From: an uncultured Candidatus Saccharibacteria bacterium
Lineage (GTDB): Bacteria > Patescibacteriota > Saccharimonadia > Saccharimonadales > VXPC01
Length of the DNA stretch: 50,941 bases
NCBI GenBank assembly: GCA_964534605.1
Contig: CAZHOS010000003.1
Location: 1-50,941 of the forward strand
Direction: 5' to 3'
Below the pieces are notes generated by a model. It saw nothing but the letters and a program-made list of their open reading frames with translations, was not told the DNA's origin and ran no database searches. Both the position numbers and the translations under genes were made by a program. How positions within the stretch are numbered: position 1 is the first letter of the stretch; every line of letters begins with the position of its first letter. Below, piece after piece: positions 1,476 through 37,319 of the stretch.

Positions 1476-3227
1476 TTAGGTCTTCTTTGTTTTACTGCTA
1501 CGCACTGCAACGTTTCCAAACATTTTGTGTTTAGTTTCTTTAACAGACGGGTCGGTAGGGTCTTTGCTTAGCTTGTCTAGGTGTTTCTTTTTATAAGATT
1601 CAAAGGCTGAGCGCTTGAGCCCACTACGCTTAATAAAGCTGACGACTCGCTCGCTGCCAACGTAGTGGGGCATCAGTACATAATTGACACCACGTGCATA
1701 GAGGTCGGCAGCACGAGCTGGCGTGTCGGCAGAGCAGACGACTACTGCTTTTGGATTATGCTGAGCCATATAGTTTGCCAGCGAGGCGTTACCATTAAAG
1801 TCGCTGGTGGTCGAGACAACAAGCTTGGCCTGGTCGATCCCAATCTCTTCCAGTAGCTCGACATCCGTAATGTCTCCGTAGGCATTGGGGATACCTTCGT
1901 GCTCTAGGTGGTCTATTATCTTGGGGTCATAGTCGAGCACCAGGTAGCGCTTCTTCATCTGTCTAAATGACTTCACAAACTGCTCGCCCCCTTTGCGGTA
2001 ACCGATCAGCACTAGTTGCGGGCTGTCTCTTTTCTCGCGTTCGCTACGAGTCTTGGATCTTTCGAAGATAGATAAGTAGGGTGCAAACAAGTCAAACAGC
2101 TTGTCGCTATAAATAATCATATAGGACGATACAGCGATAGTTATCAAGCCAACTAACGTTACGAGATTGACTACCGTTTCGTCGATTTGCCCTTGAGCGC
2201 TGCCCAGCAAAATAAACACCAGCGAGAATTCACTTATCTGCGCCACTGCCAGACCGGCCTTGAAGCCTGTCTTTTTGGTAAAGCCCAGTCCACCCATAAT
2301 CGACATAACAATAATAGGATTACCGATTAGTACAAATGCTGATAGTAGTATAGCTTGCGGTAACACTTCGGCTAGTCCATCGATTTGTATGTGGGTACCA
2401 AGCGAGACAAAGAATAACACCACAAAGAAGTCTCTAAGTGGCCTCAGCCGCGACCCAACCTCGATAGCAAAGCTCTGTGTTGCCAGGGCAATACCAGCAG
2501 CTAAGGCTCCAACCTCTAGCGAGAACCCAGCCTCCTTAAACAAACTAGCAATACCAAACCCCCAGGCAATGGCGAATATAAATAGTAGTTCTTGCGACCC
2601 AGATATTAGGTTTTTGAGAATCGGCAGCATAAACCTCACAACAACAAAGATACCAAGCGATATTAGTATGCCCTTGATAAGCAGCTCTAGCAGACTTCCG
2701 GCCGATAGGCCTTCGCTTGTCCCAGAAGCGCTGGCGGCTATCAGTGCGACTGTCGCCAAAATATCCTGAACTAACAGAAAACCGATAGATATTTTGCCGT
2801 ATAGTCTATGCTGTTCTTTTTTGTCCGACAGTAGTTTTAGGATGATGATTGTGCTCGAGAAGGCCAGGGCTACAGAGATGTATATCGCCTCCGTACCGCC
2901 ATAGCCTAACAGGTTAGCCAGCATCCAGCCGACCCCAGCCGTAAAGGCTACCTGTCCTAGTCCTGTCAGCACGGCCACTCGGCCGACCTCCTTGATGACT
3001 TTTGGATTAAGACCCAACCCGATAATAAACAGCAGCAGGGCAATACCAAAGCTAGCCAGTCCATCCAGGGTGCTGCTGGATTCGACGGCGTTGAGCGCAA
3101 CTGGCCCAACGATAACTCCGGTCAGAATATAGCCAATAATTAGAGGCTGCTTAAGCAGCCTCATGATTATAGATATACCAGCGGCCAGCCCGATAACAAT
3201 ACTAAGCTCAGTAAAAATATTTTCCAT
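1476..3227 (-). CDS. CPA2-family cation:proton antiporter with C-terminal RCK/TrkA-N-like domain (KefB/YbaL-like)
   Basis: 583 aa. N-terminus MENIFTELSIVIGLAAG...PLIIGYILTGVIVGP is typical of Na+/H+-exchanger family proteins, followed by about 12 hydrophobic segments. The C-terminal soluble domain (QLVLIGYRKGG...VVSTTSD) resembles an RCK N-lobe. Confidence 0.85.
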   Translation of the reverse strand: MENIFTELSIVIGLAAGISIIMRLLKQPLIIGYILTGVIVGPVALNAVESSSTLDGLASFGIALLLFIIGLGLNPKVIKEVGRVAVLTGLGQVAFTAGVGWMLANLLGYGGTEAIYISVALAFSSTIIILKLLSDKKEQHRLYGKISIGFLLVQDILATVALIAASASGTSEGLSAGSLLELLIKGILISLGIFVVVRFMLPILKNLISGSQELLFIFAIAWGFGIASLFKEAGFSLEVGALAAGIALATQSFAIEVGSRLRPLRDFFVVLFFVSLGTHIQIDGLAEVLPQAILLSAFVLIGNPIIVMSIMGGLGFTKKTGFKAGLAVAQISEFSLVFILLGSAQGQIDETVVNLVTLVGLITIAVSSYMIIYSDKLFDLFAPYLSIFERSKTRSEREKRDSPQLVLIGYRKGGEQFVKSFRQMKKRYLVLDYDPKIIDHLEHEGIPNAYGDITDVELLEEIGIDQAKLVVSTTSDFNGNASLANYMAQHNPKAVVVCSADTPARAADLYARGVNYVLMPHYVGSERVVSFIKRSGLKRSAFESYKKKHLDKLSKDPTDPSVKETKHKMFGNVAVRSSKTKKT

Positions 3228-3260
3228 TTACTAACTGTTAACCCTTATAGTTTGGATTTT

Positions 3261-6200
3261 TTATTTATGAACCCTGTATCTCACTCCAACCCCGATCAGA
3301 AGGATTGCCATACCTGCTAGCAACGGTACAAAGATTTCCTGCCCCGTCTCCGCTAAGTTGGTCGACCCGTCTTGTACAAAGGTAAAGTTCTGCTCTGGGG
3401 TGGTAGCTCCTGCTACGACAGTGACTGTCTGTATCTCGAACAGGTTGCCTAGTCCATCGACGTCATTGGCGGGGTCGAAGCCTTCTGGTGGAGATATCTG
3501 TACACTGTAATCCCCTGGGAAGAGGTTGCCAAAGCTATACTCACCATTATCATCTGTTGTGGTTGTAGTCACGACATTGCCCGCAGCATCATGGAGGGTT
3601 ACTGTTAGACCACTGAGGGTTAGCTCGCTACCATCTAGGCTAAAGTCTAGATCAGGGTCTACCCAAGCTCTACCACTTATGGAGCCAAGCTCTACGTAGC
3701 CAAAGTCTTGGTCGAGATCGTTGCTATTTGTAGCATCAAGAGTTGTGACACTCATATTGTCTAGACCGCCATCATTGTCGTAGGTTTGGCCATAGCCAGT
3801 AGGTAGCGTAGCTGTATCTACCATGACTGTGTAGTCATCATATGGCAGGTTGTCGAAGAGATAGAGTCCTGATCCATCTGTAACGTCAGTAATGTCGCTA
3901 CCTAGGGCATCGGTGACTGGATTGCCGCTAGCATCTAGGAGCTTAACCGTTACACCAACTAATGGTTGTTCTGTAGCGTCTTGGATACCATCGTTGTTAG
4001 TGTCTATCCATAAGTAGTCACCAACACTGGCAAGTCCTTGGTAGCCAAAGTCTTGGTCAAAGTCGTCAGAAACGTCTGTGCCATCAAAGGTAAGGGTGGT
4101 TGCAGACATATCGTCACCTGCACCATCAGAGTCGTATGTTTGAGTGAGACCTGCAGGGAGGGTTGTTGTGTCTACCATGACTATGTAGTCGCCACTTGGT
4201 AGGTTGCTGAATGTGTAGTTACCGCTAGCATTAGTGGTAGCGGTTAGAGGCTGTCCATCCTCACCGAGGATGTCTGCACCGCTATTGTCTAGCAGCTTAA
4301 TGGTTACACCAGCTAGAGGAAGTTCGTTAGCATCCTGCGTACCATCACCATCACTATCTAGCCAGACATAGTCACCGATCGATCCATCGACTATCTCGAC
4401 ACAGACATCGTTACTTATGATGTCTAGAGTAATGATGTCACTGTTAAGACCAAAGTTGTTACAGAAGAGGTTGCCTTCTTGGGCGAAGCCTGTGTTCATG
4501 GTTAATGTAAGTGTTCTAGTTGGTTGGCCGGCGCTAAAGGCTGGCAGACTAGCACGAACTGCAGTTACGTCTGAGGGGTCTGCAGGTGCAGTAGTGCTCC
4601 AGGTAGTAGTGCCTGTTCCTGCCTGGGCGGCTGTTGGTACGTCTGTGGCTGGATCTACAAGACCTTCAGAACATATGGCGTTAAGGGTAGCGTTAGCACC
4701 ACCAAGGGCATCGCCTGCTGGCCAGTTGCTTGGATGACATGGTCTGTGGTCGACTGACGCCGATGCTGTTGTTGTGTACTCGAAGGTTTCGCCTGCGGAT
4801 GAGGGAGCAATAGAGACAAACTCTATACGGCCGTCTTGGTCTGCAGTATCTGTCCCAGTGTTAGCGTTGCCTGGGTTTTGACCATTGAATCTTTCTGGAG
4901 AGTTAGCTGTAGCTGTGCCTGGTACGGCTAGGGCACCATCGCCGTTGTATGGAAGTACATCAATGAGGTGACCGATGCCAATGTCTGATGCTCCGAGGTT
5001 GGTGTACTCTAGAGTTGTTACATAGTCTGACTGTGGTTCAAGGACTTGGTCTATATCTTGTTTGGTTACGGATTCGCCGGCGGAGGCTACGACTACGACT
5101 CTAGCTGCGTCTGAGTGAGGGGCTGCGAAGACATCTTCACAGTCAGCGGTGTTTGAGTTGCCATTAACATCGGTTGCAGTTGCACAGTGAGAGTCATCGC
5201 TAAGTAGTGCAAGGCTTGAGCTAATCTCTACATCGTTAGTATACATTCCACTAGCAACTCCCGGGTTAACGGTAGCATCAATAGTAAAGGCTGGTAGGTC
5301 ATCTCCAATGGTGTAGTTTGGTACGGTAAAGGTGATTGTCTGTCCGCTTACTGCAGCCGTACAGCTTAGGCTAGCTGCAGCGTAAACACTAGCACAGGTG
5401 TCGGAGGCGTAGCTAAGCTCAGCTGGCAGGACATCCGTAAAGGTCATGGTGTGTGTACCGCTGGCTGTACCGTTAGTTCTAGGGTCTATGGTAAAGGATA
5501 CGGTGTCTCCTGGTTCTACTGGGCCTTGAGTGGTTGGGTTGTTGGTTTTAGTAATGCTCTGCGAGGCTGGGAGGACGAGGACGCGGTCGGCGTTAAGGCT
5601 GTTGAAGGAGTACAGTGCGTTTGTAGGGTCTGTTTCAACATTAACGTAACCAGCCGTCCAAGCATTACCATTGGCTCTAGTGCCACCTATATTATTCAAC
5701 CAGGTGCCGCCCCAGTTGTTGTTATCCTCATCGTAAGTTGTCGCCGCATTTGGTAGATATGAGCCTACAGAGACAGTATTTAATAACTGCAGGTTGAATG
5801 AGAACCATAGTCTAGAGTTTAGGGCTAATGGGTCAGACTGTGCATATAGCGCATTCCAGTCTCTATCCCAGCTCATTCTAATACGCACAACATTAGCATC
5901 ACCACCAATGAGGGAGGTGTCTGTCACCCAGTCGGAGTTACCGTCACCGGTAAGATCATCTTCGCAAGTAGCTGTCCAGTGATCATCACCGGTTGCTACG
6001 TAGTCTACATCGGAGAATTCGATCGTTACACCTTGCTGAAGCGCATCAAAGGCGGTTGCAGATGCAATAACATTTACAGCGCTCCCGGCATCGTCGGTAA
6101 CAACTAATGGGTTGAATTGCGAATGAATTGCATTAGCTCTCAGGTTGTCGCTAGTTCCGAACGAGATAGGTCCTCCATGAAGATAGGCATCTTGCTGGCC

Positions 6201-7646
6201 GGTACCAATGTAGCCGGCATATACAAAACTATTAATATCTAGTGTGTCGCAGACAGCTGGATTAGTGCTGTAGAGACGCTGATCGTTTATGCCTAAGCTT
6301 GTTTCAACTATCTCACCCGGGACTGCGGCTCGCTGACCTGTCTTCGAAACTCCATTATCGTCAAATGTCTTTGTAAAATTCAACGACCCCGGCCTAGTAG
6401 CACTAATAAGCCAATCCTTAACACTCACTTCTGGCCCCGAATCAACAGTCCCTGTTTGTGAGGTTACCAAAGTGCCTGCACCACCCCAAGCTGTAAGCTC
6501 GGCAGTATTGTCTATGTTGTAGGTCTCTGCTGTAGCAAAACCATTCGGATCAAAGATATCGTCATATGGGTAGAACATGTTAAGGGATACCTTGGCCAGT
6601 GTTGCTTGGTTGACTGGTGTGTCATTAACCTGAATGGTTATTGGCTCACCAGGGCCGTTCTGCGTACAGGTGACGGTAGCGATTGAAGTTGCTGGTTGGT
6701 CTAGGAGGCTACAGCCATCGGCTGCGTTGCCAGTAATGGTGCTTTTGAGTACTATGGCGTCGTTAAAGTTACCATTGGCGTTGTCACCTTCTACTGTCGG
6801 GTCATTGCTATGGGTACCTACCCAGGTGTCTGTAATGGTGAAGTCTTGGGTGCCACCGCCGTTATCTTCTATAAACTCTGAGCCTGTGTTATGGCTTAGG
6901 GCGATGTGCCAGTTAACGGTCTTGCCTTCTTCGCCATGAACCGATGCTGGCTCGTAGACGGGCCGGTAGTTAATCTCATCTACTTCTGGTAACGATAAGA
7001 TGGTCTTGTCTAGACTCACGCCAAAGGAGGCGGTAATGGTTGTATCTAGTGAGTCTGCTGCCCTATGGGTAGCGGCAGGGTTGTCTGAGTTTGAGGTAGC
7101 GTTAACGGTAATGGTGTCTAGGTTGTTACCTGTAGCTTGGGCTGCTGGCTTAAACAGTACTTTCGTACCTTCTGTCTGGTCGCCGTGGTTACAGATAAGG
7201 GTATCGTTTAGACCATTGCCGGTGGTGTCGGTAACACTAGAGTCTGGGGATATACCAGGGAAGTCAGCCTGGACTCTACAGTCAGCAGGTACTTCTGTCC
7301 ATGAGGCGCTGTTATTGAGGGTTACGGTGGTAGTAAAGTTGGTATCGTCTGCATCGTTGAGTGAGGCTTCTACTTCGTAGACGACCAGGTCAAAGTTCTT
7401 GACTACTCCGTTGCTGTCACTACTATCTGTACCGGCTGGGGTAGAGGTAGTAGCATCGGTAGCCTCTATACCATCTTGGTCTACAGCTATGATGGTTTCT
7501 GTAGTTGGGTCTTGAGGACTAGACAGAGCCCAGGTGGCAGCGCTGTATGTAAATGCAAGCAGCAGAGTTATGGCTGCAGCAGATAATAAGAAAGATCTAC
7601 CATTTAGGTAGTCCTTTGGTTTTTGTGTGAGTTGACTGAACAACAT
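3261..7646 (-). CDS. giant cell-wall-anchored surface protein (LAETG sorting signal, SdrD/Cna-B-type repeats)
   Basis: 1461 aa with an N-terminal signal-like hydrophobic segment. C-terminal repeats are GDYVWLDSDGDGTQD..., GDYLWIDTNNDGIQD... and GRAWVDPDLDFSLDG.... It ends LAETG + hydrophobic stretch + RYRVHK, a sortase substrate signature. Confidence 0.85.
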   Translation of the reverse strand: MLFSQLTQKPKDYLNGRSFLLSAAAITLLLAFTYSAATWALSSPQDPTTETIIAVDQDGIEATDATTSTPAGTDSSDSNGVVKNFDLVVYEVEASLNDADDTNFTTTVTLNNSASWTEVPADCRVQADFPGISPDSSVTDTTGNGLNDTLICNHGDQTEGTKVLFKPAAQATGNNLDTITVNATSNSDNPAATHRAADSLDTTITASFGVSLDKTILSLPEVDEINYRPVYEPASVHGEEGKTVNWHIALSHNTGSEFIEDNGGGTQDFTITDTWVGTHSNDPTVEGDNANGNFNDAIVLKSTITGNAADGCSLLDQPATSIATVTCTQNGPGEPITIQVNDTPVNQATLAKVSLNMFYPYDDIFDPNGFATAETYNIDNTAELTAWGGAGTLVTSQTGTVDSGPEVSVKDWLISATRPGSLNFTKTFDDNGVSKTGQRAAVPGEIVETSLGINDQRLYSTNPAVCDTLDINSFVYAGYIGTGQQDAYLHGGPISFGTSDNLRANAIHSQFNPLVVTDDAGSAVNVIASATAFDALQQGVTIEFSDVDYVATGDDHWTATCEDDLTGDGNSDWVTDTSLIGGDANVVRIRMSWDRDWNALYAQSDPLALNSRLWFSFNLQLLNTVSVGSYLPNAATTYDEDNNNWGGTWLNNIGGTRANGNAWTAGYVNVETDPTNALYSFNSLNADRVLVLPASQSITKTNNPTTQGPVEPGDTVSFTIDPRTNGTASGTHTMTFTDVLPAELSYASDTCASVYAAASLSCTAAVSGQTITFTVPNYTIGDDLPAFTIDATVNPGVASGMYTNDVEISSSLALLSDDSHCATATDVNGNSNTADCEDVFAAPHSDAARVVVVASAGESVTKQDIDQVLEPQSDYVTTLEYTNLGASDIGIGHLIDVLPYNGDGALAVPGTATANSPERFNGQNPGNANTGTDTADQDGRIEFVSIAPSSAGETFEYTTTASASVDHRPCHPSNWPAGDALGGANATLNAICSEGLVDPATDVPTAAQAGTGTTTWSTTAPADPSDVTAVRASLPAFSAGQPTRTLTLTMNTGFAQEGNLFCNNFGLNSDIITLDIISNDVCVEIVDGSIGDYVWLDSDGDGTQDANELPLAGVTIKLLDNSGADILGEDGQPLTATTNASGNYTFSNLPSGDYIVMVDTTTLPAGLTQTYDSDGAGDDMSATTLTFDGTDVSDDFDQDFGYQGLASVGDYLWIDTNNDGIQDATEQPLVGVTVKLLDASGNPVTDALGSDITDVTDGSGLYLFDNLPYDDYTVMVDTATLPTGYGQTYDNDGGLDNMSVTTLDATNSNDLDQDFGYVELGSISGRAWVDPDLDFSLDGSELTLSGLTVTLHDAAGNVVTTTTTDDNGEYSFGNLFPGDYSVQISPPEGFDPANDVDGLGNLFEIQTVTVVAGATTPEQNFTFVQDGSTNLAETGQEIFVPLLAGMAILLIGVGVRYRVHK

Positions 7647-8150: not shown

Positions 8151-8897
8151 TTATTGTGGGACCGTTTGTATGTCGACCGGGTTGGTGGTCGTAGATTCGA
8201 CTTCTGCAGTGTCATCTGTGGTGCGTTCTGGAGGCGTGCCGCCAGCTTCGACGATGGCGTTGTCTAAGAAGTCGCGCATCAGGTCTAGGCTGCCCACTTC
8301 GCTATTATCTATCCGTTCGCCGTTTAGGAAGAAAGTCGGAGTACTGCTGGCATTCTTATCGCGCGCATAGGCGATCTCGTCGTTAATGATTGTGTTGGTG
8401 GACGGATCAAGGAAGTCCGTATTGTACTGCTCGATATCTAGCTCTAGCTGGTTTGCGTAGTCTTCGAATATTTCGATGGCTCTGGAGGCATCGACACCGA
8501 TGGGGTCTACGCTGGAGGGGCCATTCCAGTCTTCTTGGTTTTCGTAGAGCAGGTCGTGGAACGCCCAGAATTGACCCTGTCTGCTAGCAGCTTCGGCGGC
8601 ACGGTGAGCAGCCAGAGCATTCTGGTGGATAGCTGTTAGCGGGAAATGGATATAGCTAAAAACGATTTGATCGGAGTACTCTTCTTTGACCTGGTCTAGA
8701 AGCGGGAAGAATTGGCGGCAAGCCGGGCACTCGAAGTCACCTGCTTCGGCAAATTCTATATTTAGCTCACTCGTACCAACCGTGTGCCCAACGGTTCCGT
8801 CCTCGCCTACACTAGGGGTGGTCGACTGCTCGCCGGTTAGACCTAGGGCAATTAGGCCACCAATTATCACTACTGCTACTGCAAAAATGCTTTTCAT
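8151..8897 (-). CDS. membrane-anchored DsbA-like thiol:disulfide oxidoreductase
   Basis: 248 aa with an N-terminal anchor MKSIFAVAVVIIGGLIALGL. Carries the thioredoxin-fold active site FECPACRQF (CxxC) and has DsbA-like length and organisation. Confidence 0.8.
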   Translation of the reverse strand: MKSIFAVAVVIIGGLIALGLTGEQSTTPSVGEDGTVGHTVGTSELNIEFAEAGDFECPACRQFFPLLDQVKEEYSDQIVFSYIHFPLTAIHQNALAAHRAAEAASRQGQFWAFHDLLYENQEDWNGPSSVDPIGVDASRAIEIFEDYANQLELDIEQYNTDFLDPSTNTIINDEIAYARDKNASSTPTFFLNGERIDNSEVGSLDLMRDFLDNAIVEAGGTPPERTTDDTAEVESTTTNPVDIQTVPQ

Positions 8898-11826: not shown

Positions 11827-11894
11827 AGCTTGCGAAAAATCTTGGCTACAGGGGTTCTAAACTGTAACCATAAGCGCTATAATTAATAGCTAGG

Positions 11895-12326
11895 ATGGGA
11901 ATTCATACTCAAGAATCAGGCTTTACTCTGATCGAAGCACTGCTGACGCTCTTTGTCGTGGGCGTAATCATAACGGTTGGTTTTGACCTGACCAACGCTA
12001 CCGGTCAAATTAACCTCAAAACACGTATTTACTCGGAGGCTAACTCGCTGGCGTTCGGAAAGATGCAGGATTACGCCAACAGCGATTTTGGCGATATCCC
12101 TGTGGGCAATGCTGGCAACAACTTTTTAGTAGAGGATTTTTCTAATCAGGTTTTAACGACTTCGAATGGCCTGGTTGCTAATCCCGACGGCAAGGTTTTT
12201 ACGACTTACTTCCCCGGCTCTAGGTCTCTGATAGAAGTTCGAGTAGTCTTGGATTTTGACTATAGTGGCGATAGGCGCACTGTGGAGTATGCAAACTTTA
12301 TCCAACTGGGCGGAGTAGGGCGATGA
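11895..12326 (+). CDS. type IV pilin-like protein (prepilin-type N-terminal cleavage/methylation signal)
   Basis: 143 aa. Leader MGIHTQESG followed by FTLIEALLTLFVVGVII (class III signal, Glu at +5). Confidence 0.8.
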   Translation: MGIHTQESGFTLIEALLTLFVVGVIITVGFDLTNATGQINLKTRIYSEANSLAFGKMQDYANSDFGDIPVGNAGNNFLVEDFSNQVLTTSNGLVANPDGKVFTTYFPGSRSLIEVRVVLDFDYSGDRRTVEYANFIQLGGVGR

Positions 12327-13177
12327 TGCGCCGTAGCCTGCACAATAACAACAAGTCTCTTAATCTTCGTAGTTTACGAAGACATCGCCTCGATCAAGAG
12401 GCCTTTACCCTGATTGAGCTAGTGGTTGTGATGCCAATCATCCTGCTTATAACGGGCTATATGCTAAGTATTATGTTCGACCAGTTTGGTCAGATGGTTA
12501 TCGACACAGCAGAGTCCAACCTGCGGCTCGAGGCTCAAACCATGCTCCTAAATCTCGAGGACGAGCTGTTGTTCGCGACCGAATATGGGGACGGTCTGCA
12601 TTCCCATGTAAATGACGATCATGCGCCGCCTGGTGGCTGGACAAATAGCAACGGCGGCAACGACGTTCTGATAGTTTACGAAACGGCGATCAACGCCGGT
12701 CGCCGTGATCCAGACAGGCGCTTTGTGCGCAGGGAGGTCAACAGCTGTACTGGTGGCAATGCAGCCTTTAATCCGATTGCGATCAACAATCTTCTCTACT
12801 TTACCGAGCCAAATGATGACAACGAATACAACTCACTATTTAAGCGAACCCTAACACCAACTTTTAGCACCTGTACGCAGCACAAAAATACGGGCAATTT
12901 CTGTGACCCAGACGCTGGCGACCCCCTCTGCCCCAATAACAGTAAAAGGACCACGTGTGACGTAGCCAATGTGGGCACTGGCAGCTGTGTTGGTGTCGAC
13001 GGATTGCTTTCGGAGCAAGTTGTTGATTTTGACATAACCTACTTTGACGAGAATAACGTTATAACGAACGACCCAAGCCGAGGCGAGAAAGTCGAGATGC
13101 TGGTAACTCTGGGGGACCGAAAATACGGTAAAGACATCGAAATTACATCAAGATTCATCATGAAGAAGATTAATTAG
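12323..13177 (+). CDS. type IV minor pilin-like protein (PilW-like size)
   Basis: 284 aa. Basic 27-aa leader then A|FTLIELVVVMPIILL; Ala at -1 is seen in Gram-positive Com pseudopilins. The ATGA start overlaps the previous stop. Confidence 0.7.
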   Translation: MMRRSLHNNNKSLNLRSLRRHRLDQEAFTLIELVVVMPIILLITGYMLSIMFDQFGQMVIDTAESNLRLEAQTMLLNLEDELLFATEYGDGLHSHVNDDHAPPGGWTNSNGGNDVLIVYETAINAGRRDPDRRFVRREVNSCTGGNAAFNPIAINNLLYFTEPNDDNEYNSLFKRTLTPTFSTCTQHKNTGNFCDPDAGDPLCPNNSKRTTCDVANVGTGSCVGVDGLLSEQVVDFDITYFDENNVITNDPSRGEKVEMLVTLGDRKYGKDIEITSRFIMKKIN

Positions 13178-13182
13178 CCATA

Positions 13183-16100
13183 ATGCGTATACAAAGTTTC
13201 AACAATAGACTCAATAGGCTCTTGGCTCAGAATCCCGCGTCAGCCAGCGGCTTGTCTGGTGATCAGAGATCAATGAGGCAAATGGGTGAAGACGCCTTCG
13301 TGCTACCTATGATTTTGAGCTTCATGGTTATCATATCTGTTTTAGGGCTAACGTTGATGCAGTCGAGCCTACAGGCCAATAGTCTTGCTATTCGCCACTC
13401 GTATGTGCAGATGGCGCATATTGCCAGTGGTGCGGCCATCGACTTTGCTGAGGAGCAGTTCGAGATAGACGCATCCTACATGGGAACTCCAGAATTCACC
13501 ATCGCTGTCACAGAGAACTATCGAATCACCGTCGAAGTGGAGCACCTATACTTCCAGAACCCCCCCAACAACACCATACAACGTGTTCGTGCATGGGGAC
13601 GTGTATACATACCAGAGATATCTGCAGATAGTGACTTCGCCAGAGAGATTAACGCCTCGGTAGTGCGTAACGGTGAGGTTGTCGGGGCCGTTGATCCATC
13701 CGACTTTGAGCCATTGGTTTGGCTGGACGCGTCTGACCAAAATGTGCTGCAACAAGGAGCTACAGCCGGCACGCAGTTTATAGACGCAGATACTTCTGCG
13801 GTTGCTGCCAGTGTGGTTGAGCAGCGCGGTGCAGATGCAGGTGCAAGCCCCGGGTCACTTAACTTCTCTAGCAGTGATATCGAGCTTTCGTTTGACAACA
13901 ATACGACTGGCCATCAGTCTGTTGGTTTACGGTTCGAGGACCTTGACGCACCACAAGGCATAGAGATCAACTCTGCATATATACAGTTTACTACCGACGA
14001 AGTAACGAACCTTCCTTCGGAGGTGCAGTTAAGCGTTGAGGGCGTTGATAGTGATACAGCACCTGTTTGGGGTGGGCTGTTTGCGGTTGACGTAGCCCCT
14101 AAGACAACCGCCAACTTCCTCTGGGAGCCACCAGAGTGGAATGTTGTTGGCAGTAGCAGTATTAACGAACGTATAGACGTTACAAGCATCGTTAAGGAAA
14201 TCATTGATCGCCCCGGCTGGAGTGCGGGTAACAATATCGCCTTTACTATTACTTACGTCAATGGACCAGGCGAGAGAACAGCCAGCAAAAGCAGTCCACC
14301 CCAGCTCTTTGTCGACTGGGGTGTTGGAGGGGAAGCGATTGCCACCAATGATCCTGTGCGCCTATGGCAAGACTCGTCGATAAACGGCAACGATGCTGAG
14401 TTTTTCTCGGTGTCTACAAGCGGCTCCGTAACACCGGGATTCTTGCCTACCAATCTTAATCCAGATGTTTGGTATGACGCAGAGCAGATTGTCCCCGCAG
14501 ATCTTGACGCTAGTGACAACCTTATTGCTTGGACCGACTTGTCCGGAAACGAGAACAACGCTTTGTCACCTGGGTCGGCTATCGGCGCATCAATCGAAGA
14601 TAACTTTGACCCTGGTGTGGATAGCGCCCAATGGTCAAATATAACGGGTGGATCGACAGACGCTGTCTGTGGTTCTAGCTCTGGTAATGCCTATAGGTTT
14701 ACCAGCGCATTCAATAGACGGGCAGAGACAGAGGGTATAAACACCGAGGCTGGCGGTACGATCAACTTCCACCTGCAGCTGCAGGCTAGTAACTCGGGTG
14801 GATGTAACGCTATAGAATCCGGAGAAGATGTCGTCCTCGAATATTCAACCAATGGATCGAACTGGAGTAACATAGCTACCTACCAGGTCGGTGACTATAA
14901 CTCCTATACGCCAGTTTCGCTCAATATACCGACAGGCGCCCAGTCGTCGAGCACTCGGTTCCGCTGGCGACAAGTTTCATTTAGCTCTGGTAACTTTGAC
15001 CACTGGGGAATTGACGACGTGGCCATAACAGCAAATAGCAGCAACACAGATCAGCCGCCTAGCTTTGATGACAGTACCGATACAGTTAACTTTGATGGTG
15101 CCACCCCCGAATACCTACTTTTAGAGGACACTCTGGATCTAGATGACTTCTCGGTTTTTGTTGTCAGCGAACAAGGCGCCGCTGGTGACTCGCCGCAGTT
15201 GGGTGATGGTTCGTCATTGATCGGCGCGATCCAGGATAACTTTGATCCAACGCAAGACAACTCGCAGTGGACGACCCTCACGGGTGGTAGCGAGGATACG
15301 TCTTGCGGCAACCCGACCGAAAACGGGTTCTTGTTCGATAACCCGTTCTCTCGTTTTGCAGAGACGATTGATGCGAATACTGAGTTTGGAGGCAGCATAG
15401 ACTTCGATCTTTATATAGCTCATCAGAATTCTGGTTCATGCAATGCCGTAGAGTCCGGTGAAGACATTGTGCTGGAGTATTCTACCAATGGTGGTTCTAG
15501 CTGGAATAACATAGCCACCTACCAAGTTAATGCGTACAACGACTACACACCGGTTTCCGAGCCAATACCGGCCGCTGCCCAAGCGCCGAATACTCGGTTC
15601 CGCTGGCGACAAGTGTCATTTAGCTCTGGTGATTTTGACCATTGGGGTCTGGATAATGTTTTTGTCAACATTGCACAGCCAACAGGTTCTTCGCAGAATA
15701 TAACTTATACAGCCGATGCTCCTGGCATCAACTATCACTCCACAGCACCACCTGGAGGTATATCGAATATTAATAATGGCAACACTTCTACGAGTGGTAG
15801 CGACGACTTCGAGGTTCATCCCATTAACGCCATAGGGCGCACCATCACTATGACATTTGATCAAGTTATGGACGTCGAGCAAGCAAGCTTTTACAACCGC
15901 ACCGGCTGCTGCAGGGACCGTATTAGCGGCGCACAAATGATATTCCGCGATAGTCTGGGTACAGAACTTTTCGCCTTTACCTTCCCAGTAAACACCAATA
16001 TTAACCGCATTGATATTGCTCCGCCCTCGGGCACTATCAAGAATGTTGCTAGTGTAGACCTGACGAACTTCCAAGAGAATAACCAGAACTTCAGAGAAGT

Positions 16101-17136
16101 AACTTTTACAGGTACTATGCCTTCGGCAACTGGCAGCAATGGATTCATCGAACATGCTGGTGGCAACATTACTTATAGTTCTGACGCAACGGGCATCGAA
16201 CATTCTGTCCCCGCTGCCGGCACGGGCTTTAATGTCTGGTCTGCTGGTCGCACTTCAGACCAGCTTAGCTCAAGCATCAACGGAACCGGTAGTTCGGCAG
16301 TTCTTGCTGATGGCGAAACCTTCTCGCTGGCCCAAATTGGCGCTGTAGAGGCAACCAATGGCTTTAGCGGGGGAATCAAAGAGGTGATTGTTTATCCACG
16401 TCTGCTCAGCACTAGCGAGAGACAACAGGTAGAAGGTTATTTGGCGCACAAATGGGGCCTAGATGGCAAGCTGCCTAGCTCGCACCCCTTTAAGTCAACC
16501 GACCCCGGCGAGGACGTAACAACAGGTGGTTCAGGCACATCAAGCCCACCGACATTAGAGACGAATGCCTTGGCCGGCAGAAGTATAGTTAGGTTCGAGA
16601 ATCAAGCCCTGCTTAATATAGACCTAACCACACCCATTGATTCTGATGCAGTATCTGTATTTTTGGTTGCGCGCGCCAAGCCCGGCAGTGCGAGTGATGC
16701 TCGCCTATTGTCTGCTATGGCTGATGCCGACATCACTGATTTAACGTCTAGCTCTGGTTTTGTCGGACTGAAGCGTGTTGGTGGCTCGCCTGCTGCTCAT
16801 CAGTTTTACAATTCTAGTGCAGGCGAAGACCTTAGCAGTGTTTTTAATAACAGCTGGGGCGTGTATACGAGTGTTATATCTGGGACCCAACCAGAAAGGC
16901 TTTTAAGCAACGGTGTCGAGAACGAGAATGAAGTTATAACCACAACTAGCTTTAATGCCGACGAGATATTCATAGCAGGAACGCGCTTCGGCACTGGCTC
17001 AGGCACTAACATTGCCGAGGTAGATATTGCCGAGGTTGTAGTCTATGACAAATACATTGCATGCAATGCCATCAACGATCTGGAAGAGTACTTCTCGCTA
17101 AAATACGGCATCGCTACAACCGTAAAGTCTTGCTAG
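13183..17136 (+). CDS. giant PilX-N-type pilus-associated protein with multiple lectin-like modules
   Basis: 1317 aa.
- PilX-N-like start: DAFVLPMILSFMVIISVLGLTLMQSSLQAN...
- LamG-like motifs: LVWLDASD, IAWTDLSGNENNA and the C-terminal IKEVIVYPRLLSTSERQQVEGYLAHKWGL.
- Two tandem modules of about 145 aa ending RFRWRQVSFSSG-FDHWG-D.
- An F-type-lectin-like motif. Confidence 0.8.
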   Translation: MRIQSFNNRLNRLLAQNPASASGLSGDQRSMRQMGEDAFVLPMILSFMVIISVLGLTLMQSSLQANSLAIRHSYVQMAHIASGAAIDFAEEQFEIDASYMGTPEFTIAVTENYRITVEVEHLYFQNPPNNTIQRVRAWGRVYIPEISADSDFAREINASVVRNGEVVGAVDPSDFEPLVWLDASDQNVLQQGATAGTQFIDADTSAVAASVVEQRGADAGASPGSLNFSSSDIELSFDNNTTGHQSVGLRFEDLDAPQGIEINSAYIQFTTDEVTNLPSEVQLSVEGVDSDTAPVWGGLFAVDVAPKTTANFLWEPPEWNVVGSSSINERIDVTSIVKEIIDRPGWSAGNNIAFTITYVNGPGERTASKSSPPQLFVDWGVGGEAIATNDPVRLWQDSSINGNDAEFFSVSTSGSVTPGFLPTNLNPDVWYDAEQIVPADLDASDNLIAWTDLSGNENNALSPGSAIGASIEDNFDPGVDSAQWSNITGGSTDAVCGSSSGNAYRFTSAFNRRAETEGINTEAGGTINFHLQLQASNSGGCNAIESGEDVVLEYSTNGSNWSNIATYQVGDYNSYTPVSLNIPTGAQSSSTRFRWRQVSFSSGNFDHWGIDDVAITANSSNTDQPPSFDDSTDTVNFDGATPEYLLLEDTLDLDDFSVFVVSEQGAAGDSPQLGDGSSLIGAIQDNFDPTQDNSQWTTLTGGSEDTSCGNPTENGFLFDNPFSRFAETIDANTEFGGSIDFDLYIAHQNSGSCNAVESGEDIVLEYSTNGGSSWNNIATYQVNAYNDYTPVSEPIPAAAQAPNTRFRWRQVSFSSGDFDHWGLDNVFVNIAQPTGSSQNITYTADAPGINYHSTAPPGGISNINNGNTSTSGSDDFEVHPINAIGRTITMTFDQVMDVEQASFYNRTGCCRDRISGAQMIFRDSLGTELFAFTFPVNTNINRIDIAPPSGTIKNVASVDLTNFQENNQNFREVTFTGTMPSATGSNGFIEHAGGNITYSSDATGIEHSVPAAGTGFNVWSAGRTSDQLSSSINGTGSSAVLADGETFSLAQIGAVEATNGFSGGIKEVIVYPRLLSTSERQQVEGYLAHKWGLDGKLPSSHPFKSTDPGEDVTTGGSGTSSPPTLETNALAGRSIVRFENQALLNIDLTTPIDSDAVSVFLVARAKPGSASDARLLSAMADADITDLTSSSGFVGLKRVGGSPAAHQFYNSSAGEDLSSVFNNSWGVYTSVISGTQPERLLSNGVENENEVITTTSFNADEIFIAGTRFGTGSGTNIAEVDIAEVVVYDKYIACNAINDLEEYFSLKYGIATTVKSC

Positions 17137-17203
17137 GGTTGTATGAGTAGGACGAATTTTATGTTAGTATTTAATACATAAATAACCTTTGGGGGATATG
17201 TAG

Positions 17204-17656
17204 ATGGGTTTTGCTCTAAACAACCAAAGGGTGGGATTATTATTAGGAATCGTCATGTTCTTGGGGGCAATGATGACCGCTTACTTCGACAATGCTGCAG
17301 TATGGTCGTGGGTCAGCCTGGTTACCTTTGCTTTTGTAGTCTGGACGGTTGCCAGGATATGGAGGTCTAGTACCGGTGATGCGATTTTGCGCGGTGCAGT
17401 AATCGGCGCCATGGCGATGGTCGTTGCGAGACTTGTTGGACTGGTCTCGACAAGACTGCTTTTTTCGGAATGGACAGTAAACAGCCCCGGATACGATGTC
17501 CTCTCTGGCCCAATTACCGATATGCAACGCGTCATATTAAATGGTAGCTTTGGTCAAACATTGATCTTAGTCATAGCTTCTTCGCTTCTAGCAGCCGCAA
17601 TAACTTTCGGTGCTAGATTACTTGGCCAAGAACTTATAAATAGGAGGAGCGCATAA
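17204..17656 (+). CDS. hypothetical integral membrane protein
   Basis: 150 aa with about 4 hydrophobic segments. GGGGGA lies upstream of the ATG. Translationally coupled (TAATG) to the next gene. Confidence 0.6.
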   Translation: MGFALNNQRVGLLLGIVMFLGAMMTAYFDNAAVWSWVSLVTFAFVVWTVARIWRSSTGDAILRGAVIGAMAMVVARLVGLVSTRLLFSEWTVNSPGYDVLSGPITDMQRVILNGSFGQTLILVIASSLLAAAITFGARLLGQELINRRSA

Positions 17657-18234
17657 TGTCGAACTACATCAAAGCACTACGCGACCTACTAGTGATATTA
17701 GTGGTTATTGGAACAATATCTTTGGTCCTATCGTTCGTGACAGGTAGAGACAACGGGGAGTTCGACGCAGACGAGCGAGTTGCTAGCTTCTTGCAGGTGG
17801 ACGACACGGTTGGCGAAGTTGTCGGTACTGACGATCTTGATCTTAGCGATATATCTTTTAACGAGATCGACGGAGTAGATATTAGCGACACAGAGATTGA
17901 GACTACTGATGCAGAGCCTAACGATTCTGACGACGTAGAAGAAGGTGCTTCGGACACCACCTTCCGCGAAGGGGTGATAGAAGGTGAAGGTGACGATCAG
18001 AGCGATGCCTCAACTACTGTAGCTAACGAAGAGCGCTCTCACGTAGTAGAAGCAGGTGATACGTATGGGTGTATCGCAGAAGAGTATTACGGCAGCTTCG
18101 AGTACTGGCCACTTATCGAGGCGGCAAATGCGTCTAGTGGAGTTGGCTTTCAGGAACTAGAGCTGCACATAGGTAATCGACTGATCTTGCCAGCAACAAC
18201 GGATCAGAAGCCAGCGTCATCACTCTGTTCATAA
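17656..18234 (+). CDS. membrane-anchored acidic protein with C-terminal LysM-like domain
   Basis: 192 aa with an N-terminal TM segment and an Asp/Glu-rich linker. C-terminus HVVEAGDTYGCIAEEYYGSFEYWPLIEAAN...IGNRLILP fits the LysM pattern. Confidence 0.7.
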   Translation: MSNYIKALRDLLVILVVIGTISLVLSFVTGRDNGEFDADERVASFLQVDDTVGEVVGTDDLDLSDISFNEIDGVDISDTEIETTDAEPNDSDDVEEGASDTTFREGVIEGEGDDQSDASTTVANEERSHVVEAGDTYGCIAEEYYGSFEYWPLIEAANASSGVGFQELELHIGNRLILPATTDQKPASSLCS

Positions 18235-18267
18235 AAAACTAAGTGTTAACGGAGGGTGGGGCGTAGG

Positions 18268-24793: not shown

Positions 24794-24835
24794 AACCAAG
24801 TAAAATACCCACATCTGTGGGTATTTTACTTGGTT
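24794..24835 (-). terminator. hairpin terminator that incorporates the tRNA ACCA end
   Basis: 18-bp perfect stem AACCAAGTAAAATACCCA / 6-nt loop / TGGGTATTTTACTTGGTT, followed by TTTCTT on the minus strand. Confidence 0.7.
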
Positions 24836-24905
24836 GCGGGGGAGGGACTCGAACCCCCGACCTCGTGGTTATGAGCCACGCGAGCTGCCGCTGCTCCACC
24901 CCGCG
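24831..24905 (-). tRNA. initiator tRNA-fMet (anticodon CAU)
   Basis: The 75-nt sequence CGCGGGGTGGAGCAGCGGCAGCTCGCGTGGCTCATAACCACGAGGTCGGGGGTTCGAGTCCCTCCCCCGCAACCA forms a cloverleaf. It has the C1xA72 mismatch and A11:U24 typical of bacterial initiators, and the CCA end is encoded. Confidence 0.9.
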
Positions 24906-25521: not shown

Positions 25522-25597
25522 GGGGGTGTAGCTCAGGGGTTAGAGCAGTCGACTCATAATCGATTGGTCGCTGGTTCAATTCCAGCCACCCCCACCA
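25522..25597 (+). tRNA. elongator-type tRNA(CAU), probably tRNA-Ile2 (lysidine)
   Basis: The 76-nt sequence GGGGGTGTAGCTCAGGGGTTAGAGCAGTCGACTCATAATCGATTGGTCGCTGGTTCAATTCCAGCCACCCCCACCA forms a cloverleaf. Its D-arm, anticodon arm and variable/T-arm closely resemble E. coli ileX as I remember it. The Met versus Ile2 call needs a classifier. Confidence 0.9.
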
Positions 25598-36149: not shown

Positions 36150-36226
36150 GGCGGTATAGCTCAGCTGGTTAGAGCGCAGGACTCATAAGCCTGAGGTCAG
36201 TGGTTCAAGTCCACTTACCGCTACCA
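36150..36226 (+). tRNA. elongator-type tRNA(CAU), probably tRNA-Met
   Basis: The 77-nt sequence GGCGGTATAGCTCAGCTGGTTAGAGCGCAGGACTCATAAGCCTGAGGTCAGTGGTTCAAGTCCACTTACCGCTACCA forms a cloverleaf. It has G1-U72 and an A31-G39 mismatch. Met versus Ile2 is not resolvable by eye. Confidence 0.9.
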
Positions 36227-36368: not shown

Positions 36369-36431
36369 TAAAATAAATCTAAGAAGGTGAATTTTTTTAA
36401 TCGGGGTGATAGCGATGCTAGACTTAAGGCG

Positions 36432-37319
36432 ATGAGTATTAATATTGCACCGGGTAAGTATGTAGTGGCGGTTTCTGGCGGGGTTGACTCGATGGTTTTG
36501 CTGGATGTGTTAAGCGAGACCAATGATCTGGATCTTATCGTAGCGCACTTTGACCACGGAATACGCAATGATTCGCATGTAGATGCAGAATTTGCTGCAG
36601 CTGCTGCAGGCCGCTATGGTATGGCGGTCGAGACTGAGCGCGTAGAGCTAGGAGCCGATGCAAGTGAAGAGGCTGCTCGCATCGCTCGTTATAACTTTTT
36701 GCACGATATCAGGTCCAAATACCAGGCCCAGGCAATTATTACAGCCCATCATCAAGACGATCTACTAGAGACCGTGGTTATTAATATTTCTAGAGGCACT
36801 GGCCGGCATGGCCTCAGCAGCTTACGCAGTCAGGGTAGCTTGCAGCGCCCACTGCTGGGTTGGTCTAAGCAAGATATTATGGATTATGCTGACTCCCATG
36901 ACATCGAGTGGCGCGAGGATCCTACTAACAAAGACACAACACTGCTGCGCAACCATATTAGGCACGAGATTTTGCCGAAATTATCCCAAGCTCAAAAGCA
37001 GACGCTTATTAATACTTCGATACGAACTGCCGAGCTGAACGATCAGATAGACGAAGGTCTGGCCACACTCCTCAAGTACAAAAGCTATCGGCACGAGGGC
37101 AAGGTTTACCCCAGGTCTTGGTTTAATTCATTGCCGCATAGTCTGTGCATGGATATCGTCCACCATTGGATGCGCCAGCTAAAAGTGCACGACTATAGCC
37201 GTCCAAAGATCGATAGGATTGTCCTGCAGCTCAAGACACTTCGTCCGGGTAAGCAGGTGCAGCTTGGTAGTGACAAAACAATAGCTATTACCAAAAGATC
37301 CTTGCGTCTGCAGGTTTAG
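36432..37319 (+). CDS. tilS: tRNA(Ile)-lysidine synthase
   Basis: PP-loop VAVSGGVDSMVLLDVL, HFDHGIR and ITAHHQDDLLET. The ORF opens at GTG 36387; ATG 36432 is the more likely start. Short form (about 295 aa). Confidence 0.85.
   Translation: MSINIAPGKYVVAVSGGVDSMVLLDVLSETNDLDLIVAHFDHGIRNDSHVDAEFAAAAAGRYGMAVETERVELGADASEEAARIARYNFLHDIRSKYQAQAIITAHHQDDLLETVVINISRGTGRHGLSSLRSQGSLQRPLLGWSKQDIMDYADSHDIEWREDPTNKDTTLLRNHIRHEILPKLSQAQKQTLINTSIRTAELNDQIDEGLATLLKYKSYRHEGKVYPRSWFNSLPHSLCMDIVHHWMRQLKVHDYSRPKIDRIVLQLKTLRPGKQVQLGSDKTIAITKRSLRLQV

Follow-up and report, generated by a model that had tools for sequence, protein, structure and literature searches.

A candidate tip adhesin of 1317 residues encoded by the third gene of a putative minor-pilin triad in a Saccharibacteria relative

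The recognition of host bacteria by ultrasmall episymbionts from the candidate phyla radiation (CPR) is an open question, and type IV pili (T4P) with lectin-like minor pilins are the best current lead (PMC11623550). The present study examined a locus that raises this question in a 50,941-nucleotide stretch of DNA from an uncultured Candidatus Saccharibacteria bacterium (contig CAZHOS010000003.1), which is hereafter called the window. Three genes (genes 1 to 3) follow aspS in this window; the third encodes a protein of 1317 amino acids (aa) with a pilin-like N-terminus and a series of beta-sandwich modules. Does this protein belong to a pilus, and what may it do there? We concluded, with a probability of approximately 0.78, that the three genes are a conserved minor-pilin triad of a Saccharibacteria type IV pilus, located away from the assembly genes. 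The results obtained support gene 3 of this episymbiont lineage encoding a candidate tip adhesin with a pilin anchor and multiple modules of a lectin-like type.

The triad and its relatives

The open reading frames (ORFs) of the locus were exactly as claimed by an earlier sequence-only reading, namely, an operon of three genes after aspS (which ends at 11826), with prepilins of the types G/FTLIE and A/FTLIE encoded by the first two. Genes 1 and 2 overlap by ATGA, with the start of gene 2 located within the stop codon of gene 1 (gcgATGAtg), and 5 nt separate the stop codon of gene 2 from the start of gene 3. A motif scan of the whole window identified no prepilin-type N-termini besides those of the three genes. 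A promoter/terminator scan of the + strand detected nothing exceeding the shuffled expectation; a TATAAT box is visible 11 nt upstream of gene 1.

The same ordered triad was present at 32 other loci, consisting of 29 metagenome loci, which were collected by a contig scan with the anchor alignment of the gene-3 family, and three Logan contigs. At each of the 29 loci with enough flank, the gene-3 family member was the third gene of the triad. The first gene in these relatives encodes 138-150 aa with a GFT[VIL][VI]E prepilin signal, the second encodes 240-255 aa with GFT[LI][VIL]E, and the third encodes ~580-715 aa; the frames abut or overlap. Gene 1 of the window was 34-45% identical over its full length to 21 ORFs of these loci (E down to 1e-37) and 57% identical to its counterpart on one of the Logan contigs (L110). 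Gene 2 showed ~45% identity to the second genes, also over its full length (E 3e-81). Since all three proteins have full-length homologues in the same order at the 29 and 3 loci, the arrangement is far beyond chance.

The profile of the gene 1 family matched solved type IV pilins (E 5e-4), and that of the gene 2 family matched pilins through the N-terminal helix (E 2e-3). Scores with the curated Pfam model N_methyl (PF07963; cut-off 21.2 bits) were 20.3 bits for gene 1 and 15.6 bits for gene 2, and 22.8 and 20.9 bits for their respective counterparts at locus L106. The gene 2 family has four invariant cysteines (C125, C167, C195, and C205 in the family alignment). A DsbA-like thioredoxin gene (8151-8897) was retained upstream of aspS in all relatives examined.

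At a minimum of nine related loci, the triad was located within a T4P cluster (L085, L089, L093, L095, L097, L103, L106, and L109) or beside one (L084). The usual gene order runs from a ~590-aa ATPase through a ~406-aa platform protein and the major pilin to the triad, which is followed by a ~357-aa PilM-like protein and then by PilN-like ('MINLLPP...'), PilO-like, and 100-aa proteins; L089 deviates in gene order and orientation. At L106, Pfam identified T2SSE (7e-125), T2SSF (2e-63), PilM_2 (8.5e-30), N_methyl pilins, and a weak PilO match. Stand-alone triads, as in the window, were found at L086, L088, and L090-L092. The cluster with the triad abuts recX-recA in L085, L103, L106, and L109 (about 2400-5200), and in the last three of these, a divergent pilin gene lies between recA and pilB, which resembles 'locus two' of TM7x (PMC11623550).

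A variant of the triad was observed on L113 (7643-11236) and L114 (2277-5870). Its first pilin is enlarged to 515 aa, and its third gene, P0040 (411 aa; JGI name 'pseudopilin PulG'), combines the same anchor with a vWA-like module (IIDNSWSMS, DxSxS motif). This variant adjoins a heliorhodopsin gene.

The closest family member of gene 3, P0028 (596 aa), is encoded on the three Logan contigs (L110-L112), the gene order of which is that of the window: a Na/H exchanger, DsbA-like protein, CBS protein, aspS, genes for 143, 250, and 596 aa, homologues of orf202 and orf109, murC, and onwards to dus. The interval from aspS to the HhH-GPD glycosylase gene (window 11827-18255) is a variable spot that holds 3-8 kb of unrelated genes across species. 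None of 80 Saccharibacteria species representatives carried the triad downstream of aspS, and a pilin triad occupied this interval in the window and L110-L112 only (compared with L002-L030). We considered the window triad as an orphan island; this was overturned by the triads elsewhere in relatives and by that at the same spot in L110-L112.

The aspartyl-tRNA synthetase (AspRS) encoded beside the operon shared 61-67% identity with its counterparts in 80 genomes that represent species, almost all titled Candidatus Saccharibacteria or Saccharimonadales. Because of this identity to metagenome-assembled genomes of these groups, the organism is a Saccharibacteria (TM7/CPR) relative, and the episymbiont lineage assumed in the sequence-only reading was borne out at the phylum level. 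Furthermore, FtsH of the window was 66-74% identical to FtsH encoded beside the triad-bearing T4P clusters; therefore, we regard the triad loci as those of Saccharibacteria-level relatives.

Signal and pilin module of gene 3

A word-indexed search of 5.8 billion proteins identified no full-length relative of the 1317-aa protein, only proteins sharing single modules: the tandem ~165-aa module (residues 211-385), one Reelin-B protein, and a few Laminin_G_3 proteins (residues 1051-1124). A word-indexed search with the family anchor alignment found nothing. Exhaustive HMMER with residues 1-215 yielded 35 clusters at 50% identity, most of which were 560-665 aa, with members aligning from their own N-terminus to query residue 35 onwards. 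A search seeded by one member, P0037, yielded at least 137 clusters at 90% identity; the matches listed were 607-713 aa and had no precomputed Pfam domain. Members that carry a name are labelled 'pseudopilin PulG', 'hypothetical protein', or, in one NCBI record, 'concanavalin A-like lectin/glucanase superfamily protein', and the organisms named for them are Saccharibacteria, Saccharimonadales, or Patescibacteria. Gene 3 of the window showed 46% identity to relatives over residues 31-407 (E 5e-106) and 33-38% over residues 1123-1317 (E 3e-38).

Family members consist of three parts. The first runs from a short basic leader over G-F-x-(M/L)-P and ~20 hydrophobic residues to a conserved helix (Y.Q.A..A.kaAiDYAkEqF), behind which there are a few strands. 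The second is a module of the type at residues 211-385, and the third is a C-terminal domain ending in ...AEvvVYD..L.C......E.YL..KW....C. Among 144 members with intact N-termini, position -1 was Gly in 130 and Ala in 14, position +1 was Phe in 119 and Tyr in 23, and position +4 was Pro in 134. Glu never occurred at position +5 (0/144), which was Thr, Met, Val, or Ser instead, and the median leader was 15 aa. This pattern is a degenerate class III (prepilin) signal.

A prepilin-peptidase site is predicted at A39/F40 of the window protein (...MRQMGEDA/FVLPMILSFMVIISVLGLTLMQSSLQAN; the start of the mature part is also given as FVLPMILSFMVIISVLGL...). The true start of the protein could be M1 or M31/M34. 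A start at M1 gives a 39-aa leader and the tight gene spacing found in all relatives; M31/M34 is the point at which homology to relatives begins.

We modelled residues 31-215 with AlphaFold2 and a 17-sequence family alignment (model residue 1 is protein residue 31). Model residues 10-130 had pLDDT >90 and formed a helix of 59 residues (7-65) and strands at 71-79, 84-95, 102-112, and 122-131. The modelled topology is that of a small type IV pilin (lollipop fold). In hhalign, the leader-GF-helix aligned in register with the gene 2 family (E 9.6e-5, probability 58%) and the gene 1 family (E 1.2e-4, probability 55%).

The N-terminus had been likened to PilX-N in the sequence-only reading. The likeness held for the design (Pro4 without Glu5); however, it did not extend to a significant match with the PilX_N, ComGG, or GspK models. 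Pfam PilX_N (PF14341) had no match at E <=1 in the 1317-aa protein and 14 relatives. NCBIfam GspK (NF037980) appeared in 2 of 15 members at E 0.047, which is not significant, and ComGG did not appear. Because no curated match was significant, we did not file gene 3 under PilX_N, GspK, or ComGG. A search of NCBIfam with the 1317-aa protein and a PDB profile search with the full gene-3 family found nothing.

The 1317-aa protein may alternatively be a stand-alone surface adhesin that stays outside any pilus and is anchored in the membrane through its N-terminal helix, which would remain uncleaved; the small pilins would then aid its export or be unrelated to it. We consider this to be unlikely. 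Conservation of the G/A-F-x-M/L-P motif precisely at the prepilin cut position argues against it, as do the fixed order of gene 3 behind two prepilin genes with abutting or overlapping frames, its location between the major pilin gene and pilM in relatives, and the modelled pilin lollipop fold. However, gene 3 has no curated pilin match, the window contains no machinery genes and encodes other giant surface proteins, and SignalP predicted no PilD signals for the comparable PilX1/PilX2 of TM7x (PMC11623550), all of which are consistent with a stand-alone adhesin.

Modules, insertion, and putative function

Pairwise alignment matched window residues 33-405 to residues 8-395 of P0028 (52% identity, E 3e-124) and window residues 1121-1317 to residues 401-596 (37% identity, E 4e-35). 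Since these flanking parts align to P0028, the intervening residues of the window protein are an in-frame insertion, in place of which P0028 has a stretch of 5 residues. It lies directly behind the first strand conserved in the C-terminal domain (W.D.S.NgNdA). The insertion is lineage-specific: no other family member has it, and neither does P0028, the syntenic counterpart. Among 160 family sequences >500 aa, the median length was 634 aa, the longest other member had 713 aa, and the window protein was the sole outlier. Coordinates of the genes and modules are summarized in Table 1.

Table 1. Positions of the triad genes and of the parts of the gene 3 product in the window
Feature	Position	Strand	Residues	Description
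Minor pilin 1 (gene 1)	11895-12326	+	143 aa	Class III signal MGIHTQESG/FTLIE with Glu5
Minor pilin 2 (gene 2)	12323-13177	+	284 aa	...RHRLDQEA/FTLIE with Glu5; 27-aa leader
Modular PilX-type minor pilin (gene 3)	13183-17136	+	1317 aa	Family core and 715-aa insertion
Leader of gene 3	13183-13299	+	1-39	Ends at Ala39, then FVLP (Pro4, without Glu5)
Pilin module	13300-13665	+	~40-161	Long N-terminal helix and four antiparallel strands
Beta module without a named family	13795-14358	+	~205-392	~165-185 aa; family core
In-frame insertion	14398-16542	+	406-1120	715 aa; pairwise alignment with P0028
Reelin-subrepeat-B-type jelly roll, copy 1	14596-15030	+	472-616	PF21471; reelin chain 6a48, E 1e-21
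Reelin-subrepeat-B-type jelly roll, copy 2	15232-15672	+	684-830	PF21471; 3a7q, E 4e-30
Unassigned segment	15685-16065	+	~835-961	'F-type lectin' of the sequence-only reading; low-confidence model
Partial LamG/Laminin_G_3-like module	16066-16506	+	962-1108	Ends in ...IKEVIVYPRLLSTSERQQVEGYLAHKWGL
C-terminal concanavalin-A/LamG-like beta-sandwich	16543-17136	+	1121-1317	Family core; ends in a conserved Cys

The ~165-aa beta module of the family core was 30-45% identical to repeats in P0002-P0018; large secreted proteins from other phyla commonly contain it in tandem copies. Its consensus is DDAEE...SSDLEL...vGlRF..v.IPqGA.I..AYIQFT.DE...W...W..vG......RTPDl..iVqEIvnR.GW..gN, for which no significant model was found in Pfam, NCBIfam, or the PDB. 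CBM96 was rejected as an assignment for residues 211-385 (1 of 16 copies, E 0.025), as were Mann_GBD and DNRLRE, which were likewise single weak matches. PDB 'Pizza' matches to this module, in which no individual stretch was over the threshold, were taken as spurious.

Within the insertion, two modules of ~145 aa had been noted previously as unassigned. The modules were confirmed and are now assigned to Reelin-subrepeat-B: PF21471 matched two stretches with a total of 172.1 bits (cut-off 27; E 5e-51), and a PDB sequence search of the 1317-aa protein matched reelin only, namely, the solved mouse repeats (E 4e-30). The two copies share 60% identity, and the corresponding DNA repeats are spaced by 639 nt. 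The F-type-lectin-like domain proposed behind them was not supported. F5_F8_type_C_2 at residues 863-927 was below the threshold (16.3 bits vs 27.8; E 0.015), residues 835-988 had no match in the PDB, and an F5_F8_type_C match (22 bits vs 28.2) falls within Reelin-B copy 1.

A C-terminal LamG signature, ERQQVEGYLAHKWGL (at approximately residue 1085), had also been proposed. Its LamG-like character was retained; however, its position was not, since it belongs to an internal partial LamG and the true C-terminal domain follows it. A profile built from Laminin_G_3-annotated proteins matched the internal module (i-E 1e-24) at positions 59-191 of 193, which is only the C-terminal two-thirds of the profile, and matched residues 1145-1314 at 1e-8. 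The profile of the family C-terminal domain matched residues 1120-1317 (E 4e-52) and, partially, residues 994-1095 (i-E 1e-9; positions 102-204). Pfam Laminin_G_3 (PF13385) itself had no match in the 1317-aa protein, and one family member matched at E 0.03. In the AlphaFold2 model of residues 385-1317, pLDDT was ~90 for residues 1124-1317 only. Foldseek grouped the model of these residues with two sets of solved structures, the tetanus/botulinum toxin Hc with its lectin-like jelly roll and the calreticulin lectin domain (E 7.5e-7, probability 1.0, ~212 columns). This model places the C-terminal domain in the concanavalin-A (ConA)-like fold class. Of the two folds for which profile searches on the 1317-aa protein had been suggested, PilX_N was not recovered and the lectin-type fold was recovered for the C-terminal domain, by Foldseek and the Laminin_G_3-derived profile.

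A nested LamG, in which residues 444-463 and 624-677 were taken by eye as the missing N-terminal strands of the partial LamG at 962-1108, received no support: these segments, when spliced before residues 985-1110, gave 79.9 bits, and 40 control splices gave 78.6 +/- 1.1 bits. The Reelin-B modules would be loop insertions in a nested LamG; because there was no splice gain, we do not claim this. The GAST content of the 1317-aa protein was 36.9%, against 26.6% for AspRS, and fits an exposed pilus protein.

The placement of adhesive modules on a pilin-like anchor, as in the sequence-only reading, is supported by the signal, modelled pilin fold, T4P context, and ConA/LamG-like C-terminal domain. 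We propose the following mechanism. All three proteins would be cleaved by a prepilin peptidase, the gene for which would lie in another part of the genome, and the three minor pilins would assemble into a priming complex and thereby arrive at the pilus tip. The product of gene 3 would be on top of this complex, similar to GspK in type II secretion and PilA of Streptococcus sanguinis, because a subunit without Glu5 is unable to neutralise the N-terminus of the next subunit up. It would show its beta-sandwich modules outward, and these may bind glycans on the surface of the host bacterium. The insertion may add or alter binding specificities, or lengthen the reach of the protein. Based on the homology of the triad, its T4P contexts, the folds, and published precedents (PMC11623550, PMC9934059, and PMC8179133), a pilus-tip adhesin for host-surface glycans is the most likely function.

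A number of points weigh against this interpretation. Carbohydrate binding by the modules is inferred from their folds. To our knowledge, no lectin activity has been demonstrated for Reelin-B domains, and we know of no binding function for bacterial Reelin-subrepeat-B copies. Most of the insertion was not confidently modelled (mean pLDDT 55 for residues 385-1317). The -1 residue of gene 2 is Ala, not Gly, and gene 3 also has Ala at -1, which is found in just 10% of its family; its leader of 39 aa may be unusually long. The curated pilin models N_methyl (PF07963) and TIGR02532 did not match gene 3. Foldseek with the pilin-module model found nothing significant in the PDB (best E 0.1), and S. 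sanguinis PilA was at rank 50 in the same run (E 0.74). As the sequence-only reading had stated, pilB/pilC/pilM-type genes are missing from the window: Pfam identified no PilB-, PilC-, PilD-, or PilM-type gene among all ORFs >=120 aa of the 51 kb. A cognate machine in the genome is an assumption because neither the assembly genes nor a prepilin peptidase gene are in the window.

The triad may instead form a non-adhesive filament, which could be a pseudopilus for secretion or a DNA-uptake pilus of the Com type; its big subunit would bind DNA or other cargo in place of host glycans. We regard this as improbable. The similarity of genes 1 and 2 to ComGD/GE/GF and GspH/G in NCBIfam (E 0.002-0.04), which may be taken in its favour, is weak, limited to the N-terminal helix, and far under the cut-offs. 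The cluster adjoins recA-recX in several relatives and a role in DNA uptake was hinted at for the essential pilus of TM7x (PMC11623550); however, the clusters of relatives contain PilM/PilN/PilO-type alignment genes, and the recognisable modules all have beta-sandwich, carbohydrate-binding-type folds, with no DNA-binding fold among them.

Regarding the insertion, an assembly chimera or a decaying gene fusion in place of a functional protein is hardly credible: although the insertion is unique among >170 family members and has an internal duplication, the frame is uninterrupted, family homology resumes in frame past the insertion, the identical 1317-aa protein is recorded on two contigs, GC content is even over the region and unremarkable, and the two copies of the duplication, now only 60% identical as proteins, contain no stops. 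We tentatively raise the possibility, which we consider doubtful, that the tip pilin of an episymbiont was retargeted in place by a 715-aa cassette of four beta-sandwich modules in the first loop of the ConA-like domain, giving a type IV pilin larger and richer in modules than any other seen to date. Were each extra module to bind glycans independently, gains of modules in gene 3 would be a direct genomic record of changes in the host range of Saccharibacteria; on this reading, the Glu5-less pilin family would be the general host-recognition subunit of the phylum.

In the remainder of the window, the ORFs >=120 aa with Pfam matches encoded transporters, housekeeping functions, and two further giant proteins made of repeats. 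These giants (1461 aa, 3261-7646, - strand; 1313 aa, 44600-48541, + strand) are composed of SdrD_B / CarboxypepD_reg / SpaA-type repeats; the 1461-aa protein is absent from L110, which has a 64-aa gene in its place. Downstream of the triad, a gene for an acidic 192-aa protein (17656-18234) has a C-terminus that is LysM-like by eye, with no Pfam match at E 0.01. This gene, orf150, and the HhH-GPD gene are missing from the syntenic L110. A tRNA gene with anticodon CAU (36150-36226) lies 160 nt upstream of tilS (PP-loop ATP_bind_3; 36387-37319) and is probably tRNA-Ile2 beside its lysidine synthase. The window contains two additional tRNA(CAU) genes (24831-24905, - strand; 25522-25597, + strand).

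Comparison with known systems

The principle of a pilin-anchored adhesive module is not new. Modular pilins, defined by an N-terminal pilin module and extra modules, were surveyed in 2021, with >1,200 examples in 264 architectures, the most extreme of which had 860 aa (PMC8179133), and the concept has been published within Saccharibacteria (PMC11623550). The 1317-aa protein falls under this definition and far exceeds that size. The sequence-only reading had regarded the fused anchor as a departure from classical systems; the fusion itself stands, whereas its novelty does not in view of the modular pilins (PMC8179133) and of PilX1/PilX2 of TM7x (PMC11623550). What is new is the definition of the gene-3 family, its modular variants, including the vWA-type P0040, and the unique 1317-aa member with its 715-aa insertion. 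The 2021 survey required the IPR012902 motif (PMC8179133), which the gene-3 family does not have. The present study provides a sequence-defined, phylum-wide, Glu5-less modular pilin family that has no Pfam/NCBIfam name and would be missed by motif-based pilin surveys. It also provides a matched-position pair of 596 and 1317 aa that isolates a 715-aa block of binding-type modules, a clean substrate for asking whether module gain shifts host or glycan specificity.

The reelin likeness is limited to the module. In reelin, the subrepeat is located within an EGF-containing repeat of a eukaryotic signalling protein, whereas it stands alone inside a pilin here. PilY1/PilC of diderm type IVa pili is also a large modular adhesive protein presented at the tip by minor pilins. 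However, PilY1 is not a pilin and has a C-terminal beta-propeller (PF05567); the window protein has no PF05567 in Pfam and carries its own pilin module.

Co-encoded minor pilins assemble into a priming complex, the final position of which is the filament tip, and bulky grafted modules are tolerated there (PMC9934059 and PMC8179133). Similar to GspI-GspJ-GspK, PilV-PilW-PilX, and ComGE-GF-GG, the window operon encodes a small, a mid-size, and a large Glu5-less pilin in that order, and the Glu5-less subunit caps the filament in tip complexes of the GspI-GspJ-GspK type (PMC9934059). In contrast to these complexes, the window operon includes no fourth (H-type) minor pilin. GspK has an alpha-domain inserted in the pilin sheet, whereas the window protein has appended beta-sandwiches.

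The operon of S. sanguinis similarly encodes three minor pilins, PilB (vWA), PilC (ConA-like lectin), and PilA. PilC binds glycans, and PilA, which has a Pro4/no-Glu5 signal as in gene 3, was modelled at the very tip; along with GspK, it is a Glu5-less cap subunit (PMC9934059). The vWA module of PilB recurs in the gene-3 family variant P0040. However, the S. sanguinis modular pilins have no detectable sequence homology to the window proteins. Moreover, one protein in the window is both the Glu5-less cap and the lectin carrier, with several modules instead of one or two.

Close parallels are PilX1 and PilX2 of TM7x (Nanosynbacter lyticus), two lectin-like minor pilins for which no PilD signal was predicted and which are candidate host-binding subunits. 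Deletion of pilX2 impairs host binding, and host cell-wall glycans, rhamnose especially, matter in the attachment of Saccharibacteria (PMC11623550). The likeness is drawn from the description of PilX1 (TM7x_00415-00475) and PilX2 (TM7x_02975-02995) in that study. They share with the window protein the phylum, being the largest pilin of the locus, encoding with PilV/PilW-type minor pilins, an N-terminal helix without a canonical PilD signal, a high GAST content (~36.5% in TM7x; PMC11623550), and a proposed role as a host-glycan tip adhesin. They also share a C-terminal lectin-like beta domain, and the L-type-lectin-like jelly roll of PilX1 is of the ConA fold class; PilX2 has a beta-propeller in contrast to the ConA-like domain of the window protein. 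Compared with the TM7x PilX proteins, the window protein is approximately twice the usual size of the gene-3 family, has four extra modules, and is encoded in a triad apart from the machinery genes.

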